Below, one piece after another: positions 8,452 through 14,634 of a stretch of DNA of 64,000 bases. The DNA is from an uncultured Candidatus Rokubacteria bacterium (GTDB taxonomy: Bacteria > Methylomirabilota > Methylomirabilia > Rokubacteriales > CSP1-6), in assembly GCA_963771355.1 (NCBI GenBank), contig CAVYTA010000005.1, positions 1 to 64,000 on the forward strand, given 5' to 3'. The stretch's first letter is position 1. Every line of letters starts with the position of its first letter. The translations under genes and the position numbers were made by a program. A model generated the notes under the pieces. It did no database searches. It was not told the DNA's origin and worked only from the letters and a program-made list of their open reading frames with translations.

Positions 8452-8501
8452 GATTGACAGCGGCGCGGGCTGATTGCACGCGTGAGAGGAGACGGGCACG
8501 A

Positions 8502-8960
8502 ATGGCGACCGACCGACGACAGCAGATCCGGCTGAGCCCCGACGAGCAGGCCGCGTTCTTCCGGGAACGCAAGAAGGCCGCCCTGGCCACCATCGACAAG
8601 GACGGCTTCCCCCATGTCGTGGCCATGAACTACTTCGCGCGGGACGGCGCATTCTACATGACCTCGTACGGGAAGGCGCAGAAGGTCGTCAACATCCGCC
8701 GGAATCCCAAGGTGGCGTTGATGATCGAGGCCGGCGACGAGTACGCCGAACTGCGGGGCGTGATGATCCGGGGGCGCTGCGAGGTCCTCGAGGACGAAAC
8801 CAGCGTCAGGGCGGCGTTCGAGGCGCGGGCGGGGGCACAAGCGAGTGCGTCGCCGGTCCAGCCGGGAGCGCTGGCCAGCGCGCCGAAGCGCGTGGTGCTC
8901 AAGATCGTTCCGGAGAAGGTGGTCAGCTGGGACCACCGCAAGCTCGGCGGACGATACTGA
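8502..8960 (+). CDS. Pyridoxamine 5'-phosphate oxidase-like (PPOX class, possibly F420-dependent) protein
   Basis: 'LATIDKDGFPHVVAM', 'QKVVNIRRNPKVAL', 'SWDHRKLGG'. Confidence 0.85.
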   Translation: MATDRRQQIRLSPDEQAAFFRERKKAALATIDKDGFPHVVAMNYFARDGAFYMTSYGKAQKVVNIRRNPKVALMIEAGDEYAELRGVMIRGRCEVLEDETSVRAAFEARAGAQASASPVQPGALASAPKRVVLKIVPEKVVSWDHRKLGGRY

Positions 8961-9098
8961 CCGGCGGACGGAGGAGAGCGAGACGGACAGGCGGTGTGGG
9001 TGTGCGACGGGAAGGGGTGGGGCCGCTTGGGCCAGCAAACGGCGACAGGTTCAACGCGGCCGATGGGCCTAGACCTGAACTTCGAAAAGGAACCAGCG

Positions 9099-9407
9099 CT
9101 ATTTCGGTCCGAACACATCGATGGCGATACGGCCAGCGTTGACCGCGCAGGGCCAGCCAGCATAGAACGCCACGTGGGTGATCAGCCCCTTCAACTCGGT
9201 CTCCGTTACCCCATTGTCGAGTGCCCTCTGCATGTGGCCCCGCATCTCGTCGGTCCGGTAGAGCGCAGCCAGCATGGCCACGGTGATCAGACTACGGTCA
9301 CGCTTGCTGAGGTCGGGATGCTCCCATACGTCGCCGAACAGCACGTCGTCGCGGAGTTGCCCCAGCTTGGGAATGAATTCGTACACCGTTGGTTTGTTCT
9401 GAGGCAT
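9099..9407 (-). CDS. Carboxymuconolactone decarboxylase family protein
   Basis: 'DVLFGDVWE...LSKRDRSLITVA...H..RALDNG...YAGWP'. Confidence 0.9.
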   Translation of the reverse strand: MPQNKPTVYEFIPKLGQLRDDVLFGDVWEHPDLSKRDRSLITVAMLAALYRTDEMRGHMQRALDNGVTETELKGLITHVAFYAGWPCAVNAGRIAIDVFGPK

Positions 9408-9482: not shown

Positions 9483-11063
9483 CTAGTCGACGAGCGAGAA
9501 GAGTCGCCACTCTCCAGGCATACCCTTCAGCGAGTGCTGCCCGCGATCCTCAAAGCGCGCGTCCGATCCGACGACGATGTCCTTCACCGTGCTGGACACC
9601 AGGATGTCACCAGGGCCGGCGAGTCCCTGGATTCGCGCCGCGACGTGCACCGCCATCCCCGTCAGCGTGCGCCCTTGCAGCTCGCATTCGCCAGTGTGTA
9701 TACCGGCCCGGATGTCGATACCGAGACGCTTCACGGCCTCTCGTGCTGCCCGGGCACATTCGAGCGCGCGCGCAGGGGAATCGAAGCGGACAAAGAACCC
9801 GTCGCCAGCCGTGTCGACCTCGATGCCTTCGCACCGCGCGATCTCGGCACGCACGGCATGGTGATGCTGCGAGAGCACAGCCCGCCAGCCGGCATCGCCC
9901 AGACGCCGGGCATGCTCGGTGGACCCGACGATGTCGGTGAAGAGCAGCGTGGCGAGAATGCGCTTCACCTCGCTCACCGTCTGTTTCTGACGCTTCGAAG
10001 AGTCGATGAGCTGCGCGACGCCCTGGGCGGACGCGGCCAGCTGGCCATCCGCGTCGTACACGTCGATGTCGGCGATGGCGAGCCCTCGACCACGGATCAT
10101 GCCCTTCGCCTCGGCACGCAGGAGTCTGCCGTCGGCCGGAACCGCCCGGAAGAAGGATGTCGAGTGGGCAAGGCCGGCAAACGACTGGCCGGGCTGCACG
10201 AGCAGCAAGCCGGAGGTGCGCGAGGCGAAGTTGGCCAGCGCTGCGATGGCGCCGGGCGCCACGCAGCGAGAGAACCGGCAGAGCCACTCGGTGGCGGGCA
10301 TGGTCATGGCCATGGTCACCGCCCCTTGGTGTTCGTCGATCGCCTCGATCCGGCATCCGGTCAACTCCGAGAACGGGGTGAGGAATCGGCCGTGCAGGTA
10401 CGCCTGCAGGAAGGCCAAGCCACCTTGCTCGTCGAGCATCTCCGGTGGAGCGAGCCTGCTCCGGACGGCGCGCAGATAGGGGTCGGGTGTCGGGTAGGCC
10501 GCTTCATCCACCCGACGAAGCTCTGAAGGCGGCGGTGGCGGGGACGGTTCCACCTGCCGGACCTCGCAATGGCTGGTTCCGTGCGCAACCTTCCGCCCCT
10601 GAGGATCCTCGACCTCGACCTCCACGAACACAAACAATCGGCTGGCGTTGACGACGCGCGCGCGAGCCAGCAAGTTGCCGGCCTGAGGACGGGTCGGCCG
10701 GAAATAGTTGAGCGCCAGCGAGACCGGTTCAACATCCAGGCCGGGTGTGAGCGTGGTCATCGCCACTCCGGTGACCGCAGTTTCGGCGAGCATCGAGACC
10801 TCGAGCTCTCCCGTGGTGATCGACGACCACCCCGTTGCCGGCATCACCCAGGTTCCAGACCCTGGCCCCACATGGCCCGCCCGTATTCCCAGTAGACGGG
10901 CGATCGGGGGAGAGGGCAGCTGAGACTGCTCGAACGCCCGGATGCGGTCGATTCCGGGCAACGCCCAGAACCAGAGAGGCGGTACGTGCCCTCGAACGGC
11001 TTCGTCGACGATCACACCGATGTCTCCATGGACCTCATGCAGGGAGGCGGCCGACTGACCCAC
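9483..11063 (-). CDS. Tandem PaaI-type hotdog domains fused to a class III nucleotidyl cyclase
   Basis: Two hotdog-like repeats ('LNYFRP...ARARVV...VEVEDPQGRKVAHG' and 'SFFRAVP...IDVYDADGQLAASAQG'), then cyclase motifs 'LLFTDIVGST', 'TAGDGF', 'IRAGIHTGE', 'AVHVAARI', 'LKGMPGEW'. Start codon uncertain. Confidence 0.85.
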   Translation of the reverse strand: MGQSAASLHEVHGDIGVIVDEAVRGHVPPLWFWALPGIDRIRAFEQSQLPSPPIARLLGIRAGHVGPGSGTWVMPATGWSSITTGELEVSMLAETAVTGVAMTTLTPGLDVEPVSLALNYFRPTRPQAGNLLARARVVNASRLFVFVEVEVEDPQGRKVAHGTSHCEVRQVEPSPPPPPSELRRVDEAAYPTPDPYLRAVRSRLAPPEMLDEQGGLAFLQAYLHGRFLTPFSELTGCRIEAIDEHQGAVTMAMTMPATEWLCRFSRCVAPGAIAALANFASRTSGLLLVQPGQSFAGLAHSTSFFRAVPADGRLLRAEAKGMIRGRGLAIADIDVYDADGQLAASAQGVAQLIDSSKRQKQTVSEVKRILATLLFTDIVGSTEHARRLGDAGWRAVLSQHHHAVRAEIARCEGIEVDTAGDGFFVRFDSPARALECARAAREAVKRLGIDIRAGIHTGECELQGRTLTGMAVHVAARIQGLAGPGDILVSSTVKDIVVGSDARFEDRGQHSLKGMPGEWRLFSLVD

Positions 11064-11179: not shown

Positions 11180-11662
11180 TTAGCTCGCCCGGCGGATCAA
11201 CTTCTCGATTGAAGTTGGAAATCGCGTCTGAAAGTCCAACAACTTGGCCCAAAGCGGCGTGATCTTAATACGAGCCATCTGCTTGTACATCGCGCGCACC
11301 TGCGCCTCAAAAGCATCCCACTGGTCGGGTCCGACACCCTTTCTAGATGCAGCGAGGTATTCGGGCGGTACGCCATCCACTATATCGATGGCGGCAGTAC
11401 CTCGCACGAGCAAAACATGCGGCGGGAAAGCGTTCGTATCAACGGTGAATGCCACCTTCGGATTTGTTTTCAGTGCCGAAACTTTGGGCGCGTGCGGAAC
11501 CGTACAAAGCACAAACTGACTACCGTTCCAGTGGAAGCCAATCGGGATCGCGCGCGGAAATCCGTCCGGTCCGAGGTATGCCAACCGCGCCGGAATACTG
11601 GATTGCATTAGCTCTTGTGCCAGCGGATCGCTAAGCACTCGAGTGACATCCTGTGGTTGCAT
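11180..11662 (-). CDS. Pyridoxamine 5'-phosphate oxidase family protein
   Basis: 'ARLAYLGPDGFPRAIPIGF', 'KVSALKTNPKVAFTVD'; visibly lower GC. Confidence 0.85.
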   Translation of the reverse strand: MQPQDVTRVLSDPLAQELMQSSIPARLAYLGPDGFPRAIPIGFHWNGSQFVLCTVPHAPKVSALKTNPKVAFTVDTNAFPPHVLLVRGTAAIDIVDGVPPEYLAASRKGVGPDQWDAFEAQVRAMYKQMARIKITPLWAKLLDFQTRFPTSIEKLIRRAS

Positions 11663-12057
11663 CCTAGCCTCCCTCCGGTCTCAGTTGTACTGAATGTACC
11701 GAAAATCGCCAAGAAAACGAAGCTGAAGAAGACAGCGTAACCTGACGCCGGCCAGGAGGTCTGCTCCGGCCGGTGAAGGGACTCGCGTTCGCCTTGCGGT
11801 TCAATGGCGGCGTGTCTGGTCGAAGGGGTTGAGGGGCCCTTGACCACGGGGCTGCGGCGGCGCAGGATTACGCGGGGTCAGAGGCCGATCGTCGTGCCGA
11901 CACGCCCTTCTCGCCCTTGAGGTGCGGTTGCCTGCGATCCCCCGGGCCGGGCTCGGGTTCCGAGTACGAAGTGTTCACCGCCCGGTCCGCGGCGTGCTTA
12001 TATTCCTTAAGCTTCTGAGACGCTCGAGGCATACCGGCGGCAACAGTGGAGGCGCAG

Positions 12058-13269
12058 ATGCCCACCCAGGTAGGGGTCGGATACAGCGAACACGCGAAAT
12101 CCCATGAGGCAGGAGCCGAGGCCGCTCGGGCCGCTCTCGCGGATGCCTCCCTCGCCTCGTGCAATCTGGTCCTTCTGTTCGGGACAGAGAAGCATGATCC
12201 CGAGCGATTGCGCGACGGAGTCCGCGAGGTAGTCGGCTCGGCACCGAGGCTTATCGGTGGGTACTCGATGGGTATCATCTCGAGGGATCGGCTCGGCTAC
12301 GATGGACACCAGGTAGGTGTCGCCGTCATGTCGTCAGACTCCGTGAACGTCGACATGTTCATCGAGACTGGCCTGGTGGGTAACGAGCACAAGGTCGGGC
12401 TCGCGCTCGGTGAGCAGATCAAACGAAACCGCTACGCGGGCTCACCCAATATCGTGCTCATGTACGACTCCGTCATCCGTTCGGCCGCGCAGGGTCTGGA
12501 GCTGAACATGGCGACGCCGCTCATCGAGGGCATCGCCGAGGCGATCGGTACCTGGCCGCCTACCGCCGGCGTGGGCATGATGGGCAGCATGCAGTGGAAC
12601 CCCACCTTCCAGTGGTTCGACGATCGCATTGAGCAGCATAGTGCGATGGCCCTCGTATTATCGGGCGCCGCGCGAATGGACACGATCATCATGCACGGCT
12701 GCCGACCCGCCGGCAGCTACCACACGATCACCAAGGCCGAGGGACCGCTCGTCCTGGAGATCGACGGCAAGCCTGCCCTCGATGCTATCGCCCACCTGCT
12801 CGGGCCCGACAGCGACAAGAGCTGGGAGGACTACCCGCTCTTCGTCACGCTTGGCGTGAACAAAGGGGACAAGTTCGGTCAATTCAAGGAGGAGGACTAC
12901 GCGAACCGGCTCGTCATGGCCGTCGATCAGGAGCGGCGGGCACTGGTCATGTTCGAGAACGATCTCAAGCAGGGCTTCGAAGTCCAACTCATGCGGCGAA
13001 GCATCGACTTCGACTACATCAGCCGGCGAACTGACGAGCTTCTTGGCCGCCTCGGGGGCCGCACCCCATTCTTCGCCCTCTACATCGACTGTGCGGGCCG
13101 CGCGAGCGCCTACTGTGGCACCGAGCGGGAAGAGGCCGCGGAGGTCCAGCGCGTCATTGGATCTCGTGTCCCTCTCCTCGGGATATACGCCGGAGTCGAA
13201 ATCGCCATGGTCGGCGGAGACATACAGGCCCTCGACTGGACGGGCGTTCTCTGCATGTTCAGCGAGTGA
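12058..13269 (+). CDS. FIST N+C domain sensory protein (NosP-like)
   Basis: 'HGCRP', 'ITKAEG..VLEIDGKPA', 'YIDCAGR', 'PLLGIYAGVEI'; RBS GGAGG. Confidence 0.88.
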   Translation: MPTQVGVGYSEHAKSHEAGAEAARAALADASLASCNLVLLFGTEKHDPERLRDGVREVVGSAPRLIGGYSMGIISRDRLGYDGHQVGVAVMSSDSVNVDMFIETGLVGNEHKVGLALGEQIKRNRYAGSPNIVLMYDSVIRSAAQGLELNMATPLIEGIAEAIGTWPPTAGVGMMGSMQWNPTFQWFDDRIEQHSAMALVLSGAARMDTIIMHGCRPAGSYHTITKAEGPLVLEIDGKPALDAIAHLLGPDSDKSWEDYPLFVTLGVNKGDKFGQFKEEDYANRLVMAVDQERRALVMFENDLKQGFEVQLMRRSIDFDYISRRTDELLGRLGGRTPFFALYIDCAGRASAYCGTEREEAAEVQRVIGSRVPLLGIYAGVEIAMVGGDIQALDWTGVLCMFSE

Positions 13270-13278
13270 CGGCTTCCC

Positions 13279-14630
<1,352 letters not shown>

Positions 14631-14634
<4 letters not shown>

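Follow-up and report, generated by a model that had tools for sequence, protein, structure and literature searches.

A double hotdog with decayed thioesterase sites fused to an Rv1900c/LipJ-type class III cyclase: a candidate one-component receptor

Hotdog thioesterases, hotdog sensors and class III cyclases

For most bacterial class III cyclases, the signal that serves as input is not known. Rv1264 is modulated by fatty acids and the same is reported for Rv2212, also a class III cyclase; the regulatory domains of both are unrelated to the module described here and lack a hotdog. The purine and His positions of Rv1900c are said to be dispensable, a finding ascribed to Sinha et al. in 2005. Rv1900c is described as forming asymmetric homodimers with one ATP analogue bound, and class III cyclases as needing aids to dimerisation [PMC5699072]. 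PaaI-type hotdog thioesterases have a composite active site, formed by the helix acid of one subunit together with the first Gly in the HGG turn of its partner [PMC13114782, PMC2698920, PMC516016]. Glu is the catalytic acid reported for 4HBT-II, YdiI and SaPaaI [PMC516016, PMC13114782], and TA-type thioesterases are described with an Asp at the loop position [PMC2698920]. The subunits of Thermus thermophilus PaaI rotate by up to 2 degrees on binding [PMC2698920] and SaPaaI is reported to be cooperative [PMC13114782], so that the hotdog scaffold has a known route from ligand binding to quaternary change. FapR is a non-catalytic hotdog sensor of malonyl-CoA [PMC516016, PMC3536700] and was described in 2013 as the only well-characterised family to use the hotdog fold non-enzymatically [PMC3536700].

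The gene described here, from a 64-kb window (the whole stretch of DNA that was analysed), encodes a protein that resembles each of these systems in part. Its cyclase domain is 53% identical to that of Rv1900c/LipJ (1ybt/1ybu, NF058673) and likewise has a His for the transition-state Asn and a non-Lys residue at the purine position, and in both proteins the N-terminal domain is a soluble enzyme fold. This domain is a double hotdog in the fusion and an alpha/beta hydrolase in LipJ, and the fusion has Asp401/Thr450 where Rv1900c has Asn/Asp. With the PaaI/4HBT-II proteins (TE11, TE13; 2pim, 3nwz, 1q4s, 1j1y, 4m20) the fusion shares the fold of each half and the motif register and, by prediction, may share a tetramer-like assembly; it differs from them in having two copies per chain plus a cyclase, in lacking the oxyanion Gly at both sites, through a change to Pro at one and a deletion at the other, and in one acid that is Asn. 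The likeness to FapR lies in the recruitment of a hotdog for non-enzymatic sensing, which for the fusion is proposed, and, judging from the Arg110-Asn119 spacing reported for FapR, in an Asn at the catalytic-acid position comparable to Asn262 of the fusion. However, FapR is a single-hotdog homodimer of Firmicutes with a helix-turn-helix (HTH) output, whereas the fusion has a tandem PaaI-derived hotdog and a second-messenger output. No sequence link between the two was found, and the Pfam and NCBIfam scans and the AF2 model revealed no HTH in the fusion corresponding to the N-terminal one of FapR.

A family of stand-alone double-PaaI proteins (340–375 aa; Atlas clusters, with Actinomycetota as the commonest phylum) is colinear with the fusion over 340 residues at 27–35% identity and also shares its N-terminal arm and Pro-rich linker. 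In contrast to the fusion, these proteins keep the Asp and a (Y/Q)GG turn and have no cyclase, and their sequences suggest that they are probably active thioesterases. Conservation in this family (P0149–P0268) is strong at a single composite site, and none of the solved structures is close to it. By analogy, the fusion would be a pseudo-thioesterase sensor in the manner of FapR that acts on an Rv1900c-type cyclase, but it is a member of neither FapR, nor LipJ, nor the active PaaI proteins. The earlier note on this DNA knew of no previous characterisation of the architecture, and neither do we: no description of a hotdog-cyclase fusion was found in the full-text literature, subscription journals being outside the scope of the search, and a survey of hotdog proteins from 2004 does not use the word 'cyclase' in its main text [PMC516016]. 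As databases label both domains automatically, the architecture is on record, though we found no study of it.

The gene and its domains

The minus-strand ORF 9483–11063 is open from stop to stop and contains all five motifs quoted in the earlier note, which had taken this whole span as the gene. The gene itself is real, while its start is probably the GTG at 11015, giving a protein of 510 aa (Table 1): 79 full-length homologs start here and a GGAG lies about 10 nt upstream, and on the strength of these homolog starts 11063 was rejected as the start. Residue numbers refer to the 510-aa protein; adding 16 converts them to the 526-aa ORF. Neither a sigma-70 promoter match for the gene nor an Rfam match within the window was found, and sequencing runs on record as RNA share words with the gene at a level (at most 0.19) too small to bear on expression. 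The flanking genes at 8454–9407 and 11180–11662 encode two PNPOx/F420-type proteins and a carboxymuconolactone-decarboxylase (CMD)-family protein, an arrangement in common with the nearest genome, L082, only. Further along the window (12046–14634, plus strand), a FIST N/C protein with a weak NosP match far under the cut-off is followed by a GAF-HisKA-HATPase kinase, and the pair possibly forms a gas- or heme-sensing module.

Table 1. Coordinates of the fusion gene, its domains and key residues in the window
Feature	Positions	Strand	Remark
Double-hotdog/class III cyclase fusion gene, 510 aa	9483..11015	-	GTG start 11015 (probable), ORF to 11063
N-terminal arm and cap helices, residues 1–35	10911..11015	-	E-x-V-R-G, L-P-G; also in stand-alone double hotdogs
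Hotdog 1, residues 36–154	10554..10910	-	GG turn deleted
Glu72	10800-10802	-	hotdog 1
Glu78	10782-10784	-	catalytic-acid position of hotdog 1
Pro-rich inter-hotdog linker (residues 155–185) and hotdog 2 cap helix (residues 186–212)	10380..10553	-	
Hotdog 2, residues 213–338	10002..10379	-	last strand in predicted dimer interface
Pro254	10254-10256	-	oxyanion-Gly position of hotdog 2
Asn262	10230-10232	-	catalytic-acid position of hotdog 2
Short basic linker, residues 339–350	9966..10001	-	low pLDDT; fixed length within close family
Rv1900c/LipJ-type class III cyclase domain, residues 351–510	9486..9965	-	
D361	9933-9935	-	cyclase
D405	9801-9803	-	cyclase
D401	9813-9815	-	cyclase
T450	9666-9668	-	cyclase
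H457	9645-9647	-	cyclase
R461	9633-9635	-	cyclase

The N-terminal half had been assigned as two PaaI-like hotdogs, and profiles, model and structural matches agree on this. Pfam detects 4HBT, 4HBT_3C (below the cut-off) and Guanylate_cyc in the protein, NCBIfam TIGR00369 matches two stretches (E 5.5e-18) and AF2 models the hotdog region alone with a pLDDT of 97.3 and a pTM of 0.95. The top structural match of this model is the double-hotdog thioesterase 3cjy (Z 20.9, rmsd 3.3 Å, 225 residues aligned), and single PaaI chains fit each hotdog half (Z 11–12.5, rmsd 1.4–2.0 Å), including 2pim (Z 12.5, rmsd 1.8 Å) and 3e1e (Z 12.5, rmsd 2.0 Å). The hotdog fold in dimer geometry, a feature of PaaI/4HBT-II thioesterases, is present by all three approaches. 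For the full-length protein, the pLDDT is 92.1 and the pTM 0.69 with a low-confidence block at residues 341–350, hence each domain is well predicted and their mutual position is not.

Two copies of residues 1–342 are predicted to form a homodimer with a score of 0.79 (best control 0.00), passing a mark that 20/30 solved pairs and 1/23 single chains reached, rough counts for which own alignments were used. At least 94% of the contacts recur across the runs, the pLDDT is at least 90, and the contacts involve alternate strand residues, including 326–337, a pattern that we read as a predicted back-to-back packing of sheets like that in PaaI tetramers and TesB dimers (TB/DdhB). Since PaaI and TesB assemblies have already been solved, the pass may come by likeness; if the dimer is real, both linkers would come to lie at the twofold axis and the cyclase domains would be paired. 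Between G324 and F359, the chain spans 35 residues in 66 of 68 close rows, compared to 30–41 in 36 more distant ones. The best-kept residues of the clade, R106, N123, F105, F130, E132 and H145, fall within the predicted dimer interface, Arg106 and Asn123 of hotdog 1 being invariant in all 80 close rows.

The cyclase domain had been likened to that of Rv1900c/LipJ, with both metal Asp residues kept, an Asp at the Lys position and a His at the Asn position, all of which is borne out. It matches PF00211 (E 1.9e-10) and superposes on 1ybu with a Z of 28.8 and an rmsd of 0.8 Å over 161 residues, and in the alignment to 1ybt H457 falls opposite a His and D401 opposite an Asn. The LipJ model NF058673 scores 207.9 against a cut-off of 800 and its match is restricted to the cyclase. 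The metal Asp pair D361 and D405 and the transition-state R461 are invariant among fused rows (79/79 close and 29/29 distant), H457 is present in 79/79 and 23/29 of these, respectively, and D401 in 59 of the 79 close rows. The presentation of these residues as an atypical feature does not hold up as a novelty: an Asp at the Lys position occurs in 61/79 similar LipJ-type domains from hotdog-less loci, a set that is biased in having been found with this family's own patterns, and in two of the three closest own-genome paralogs, so that these residues are a LipJ-type trait. The canonical Lys plus Asp/Thr adenine pair is absent from the query, which has Asp401/Thr450; a K/D adenine pair is found in 4/79 close versus 20/29 distant fused rows, and position 450 is occupied by N15 K13 D12 S11 A9 G8 T7 among the 79 close rows. 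In the LipJ-type cyclases L013–L080, a swapped Asp/Lys pair is seen at the two purine positions in 48 of 79. In a tblastn search with the cyclase domain, the genome gives 16 matches, three of which are close LipJ-type paralogs (C5:459175, C5:80679 and C4:123813). Receivers of cyclic nucleotides (cNMP) exist in the genome, as 12 cNMP-binding domain matches were obtained, none of which flanks the fusion gene. A Pycsar or other defence role found no support, with no PADLOC hit at E 0.01 and PNPOx-like and CMD-like flanking genes, with no adjacent cNMP-binding effector.

Loss of the thioesterase motifs in cyclase-fused lineages

The best 120 of 3916 homolog matches have 48–95% identity, and 79 of these 120 are at least 495 aa long and align end to end, which rules out a chance fusion or assembly artefact. 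One relative at 82% identity belongs to Methylomirabilota according to NCBI, which makes this phylum probable for the host as well. Of 61 relatives searched, four gave a full double-hotdog match, and these four lie within the set of 8 same-genus genomes; in a sample from the phylum, the count is 4/201 genomes, and 13 of 80 loci on GTDB contigs carry both parts. Fusion loci at 42–51% identity are assigned by title to mycobacteria, Nocardioidaceae, Binatia and other deltaproteobacteria, Myxococcales and Thioalkalivibrio, a host list that leaves out L001 and L002, whose DNA is 96.6% and 95.1% identical to the window. Judged by this distribution, the fusion gene is a conserved family but a patchy accessory gene. 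No shared neighbourhood, including acyl-CoA metabolism genes, was found across 12 loci compared by eye from crude ORF calls; a thiolase-like gene lies upstream in two mycobacterial loci among them. No other output fusion of the double hotdog was found at 658–2000 aa among 7992 candidates, a negative of little weight, since a P450 fusion surfaced separately (P0221, 796 aa, in which the double hotdog precedes a C-terminal domain resembling cytochrome P450 by eye). In the same-genus genome L082, a broken partial second copy of hotdog 1 (L082:3279–3596, 82–90% DNA identity) lies just upstream of the intact gene region and adjoins another class III cyclase gene, and at L011:5842–7546 and L012:3894–6759 the fusion gene is present in copies with a frameshift or an interruption.

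When 50%-identity representatives were searched with the hotdog region, 704 matches resulted, of which the best 150 were examined. Sixty rows shorter than 325 aa were removed, as were 10 truncated, extended or ambiguous ones, and the remaining 33 cyclase-fused rows (three with a frameshift in the cyclase) were compared, together with the query, with 47 stand-alone double hotdogs. Profile alignments, one pair of which shares the query row, place the (Y/Q)GG of the stand-alone proteins opposite the HGG of solved PaaI proteins and opposite A253-P254-G255 of the query; the family baseline is (Y/Q)GG and not the HGG that the earlier note had used as its reference. Motifs published for these enzymes fix the register as well [PMC516016, PMC2698920, PMC13114782]. 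The hotdog-1 acid and the first Gly of hotdog 2 are both kept in 45/47 stand-alone representatives versus 1/32 rows of the main fused clade (32 rows, SH-aLRT 98 in a tree with the motif columns removed) and 0/80 close rows. A deletion of 2–4 residues shortens the hotdog-1 turn in all 32 main-clade rows to a span of 18–20 residues, as compared to 22 residues in 46/47 stand-alone rows, and the second acid is D/E in 33/47 stand-alone versus 4/34 fused rows. The hotdog-1 acid position is E in 11/32 main-clade rows and otherwise freely variable; within the close family, Glu78 is kept in 72/80 rows and position 72 is E/D in 77/80. In site A of the query, Glu78 faces Pro254, which has no backbone NH, and in site B Asn262 replaces the acid and the GG turn is absent, thus both sites are incomplete; a Gly at the oxyanion position, the first Gly of the turn, is found in 0/80 close rows. 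The earlier claim that both hotdogs lack the HGG...D signature therefore stands as far as the broken sites are concerned and needs amending for hotdog 1, which lost its GG turn through a 3-residue deletion and retains the acid position as Glu78. On these alignments, the degeneration of the hotdogs is real and tied to fusion, loss being seen only in cyclase-fused lineages; Fisher p-values, which disregard the relatedness of the rows, were set aside in this comparison and in that of the second fused family.

A second fused family is represented by P0244, which falls among stand-alone rows in the tree. The best 120 of 378 matches to its hotdog part comprised 81 fused and 29 stand-alone rows, the other 10 being excluded because their length was odd or the motif could not be matched. 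Among these, the Asp, the Asn and the first Gly are intact in 29/29 stand-alone versus 33/81 fused rows. The changes are confined to one fused-only subclade (SH-aLRT 99), in which 48/50 rows are altered, with Gly replaced by S/A/T/P in 43 and Asp by Asn in 13. Because all 31 fused rows outside this eroding subclade are intact and 0/7 independent fused/unfused pairs differ in the motif, fusion permits loss without forcing it; these same pairs leave fusion as an immediate cause of motif loss unsupported. Motif loss is thus located in the main clade, the eroding P0244-family subclade and the single row P0237. The FLR, DLK and HRGR motifs, which probably contact CoA, are nearly invariant in the younger P0244 family, a pattern to be expected where catalysis is lost first while binding is retained. 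The cyclase domains of this family form one clade (26/26 sampled, SH-aLRT 100) that is weakly placed apart from the main clade. Since an AU test does not reject a single clade of all fusions (p 0.214), the two domain trees at most suggest that the fusions arose independently. Intact, eroding and cyclase-less members are intermixed in the P0244 family, one member of which is a Trebonia sp. according to NCBI, and the fused state changes at least seven times on well-supported branches.

Erosion in the main fused clade extends to the CoA-type motifs of hotdog 2, with R290 retained in 17/32 rows versus 45/47 stand-alone rows, H307 in 12/32 versus 41/47, R310 in 2/32 versus 42/47 and D283 in 9/32 versus 43/47; hotdog-1 R106, in contrast, is better retained in the fused clade (31/32 versus 29/47). 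Acyl-CoA is therefore only a candidate ligand. In FapR, the adenosine 3'-phosphate of malonyl-CoA is described as not being contacted specifically [PMC3536700], and the decay of the motifs would hence be compatible with a thioester ligand, yet it removes positive support for one. Hotdog 2 is the least conserved domain in the close family, with a mean identity of 0.40 in the 68-row close alignment compared to 0.60 for hotdog 1 and 0.68 for the cyclase. The dN/dS values against four relatives, three of which have few substitutions (a duplicate fifth row was left out and a sixth was unscored), are 0.17–0.27 for hotdog 1, 0.23–0.76 for hotdog 2 and 0.18–0.41 for the cyclase, and indicate that the hotdog region remains under purifying selection. 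Pocket-side positions beyond the interface residues listed above are also conserved in the close family, namely W244 (79/80) and F/Y248-S249-R250.

A candidate receptor mechanism and its rivals

We hypothesize that the pseudo-thioesterase double hotdog acts as a sensor that regulates cAMP synthesis, making the fusion a one-component receptor, and assign this reading a probability of about 0.5. Its starting point is the state of the two sites, with Pro254 in place of the Gly whose NH would polarise the thioester and Asn262 beside a missing GG turn. Two chains are predicted to pack sheet to sheet as in the PaaI tetramer, the last strand of each running through the 12-residue linker into the cyclase. 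A ligand in the tunnel would then shift the subunits, comparable to the half-site induced fit of PaaI, and change the closure of the cyclase dimer, and the product, by comparison with Rv1900c, would be mainly cAMP. As to the ligand, descent from the acyl-CoA substrate of the ancestral enzyme is most likely, and it is probably an acyl-thioester or its acyl/aryl moiety; that it is acyl-CoA itself we regard as doubtful. Equally tentative is a broader scheme, in which a family of one-component acyl-CoA-to-cAMP receptors would have arisen from a thioesterase through three stages of conversion (intact, eroding and dead fusion), with catalysis lost more than once.

The double hotdog could instead be a mere scaffold that binds no ligand, dimerises and holds the cyclase pair constitutively on or off. 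We consider this unlikely, though the location of the best-kept residues in the predicted interface, the decay of both the catalytic and the CoA-type motifs of hotdog 2 and the reported need of class III cyclases for dimerisation aids [PMC5699072] all fit such a role. It sits less well with the conservation of the pocket-side positions E72/D, E78, W244 and F/Y248-S249-R250, and a 340-residue two-domain module seems costly just for dimerising. The conserved pocket acids Glu78 and Glu/Asp72 also leave room for residual chemistry, and the protein may still be an enzyme, bifunctional, slow or rewired, that uses Glu78 alone or a new Glu72/Asn262 site and for which an effect on the cyclase would be optional. 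Precedents exist in the catalytic Glu of 4HBT-II, YdiI and SaPaaI and in the loop Asp of TA-type thioesterases, and fully intact fused proteins occur in the P0244 family (33/81 among the best 120 of 378 matches). Nevertheless, the lack of a backbone NH at Pro254, the absence of Gly from this position in all 80 close members and an acid that is E in just 11/32 main-clade rows and otherwise varies freely make retained catalysis improbable.

A further rival concerns the output, in that a cyclase with Asp401/Thr450 might be promiscuous, GTP-preferring, weak or dead. In having an acid at the Lys position the domain is akin to guanylyl cyclases, and position 450 is unconstrained in the 79 close rows. 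However, the canonical Lys/Asp adenine pair is found in 20/29 distant fused members, Rv1900c likewise lacks the Lys and is yet titled an adenylyl cyclase in the PDB, and the metal Asp, Arg and His residues are invariant in the close rows; the PADLOC search, having given no match, provides no sign of Pycsar either. We therefore hold an output other than cAMP to be quite improbable.

Should the pseudo-thioesterase sensor indeed respond to acyl-thioesters, CoA-ester or lipid pools would be linked directly to cAMP, and the protein might serve as a genetically encoded acyl-CoA reporter that can be read out in cya strains. If the family proves to be an acyl-CoA-to-cAMP receptor, no earlier hotdog sensor would have had a second messenger as its output, and the family would be, after FapR, the second well-defined hotdog sensor without enzymatic function. 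Whatever the ligand, the matched stand-alone, intact-fused, eroding and dead versions constitute a series for the conversion of an enzyme into a receptor.
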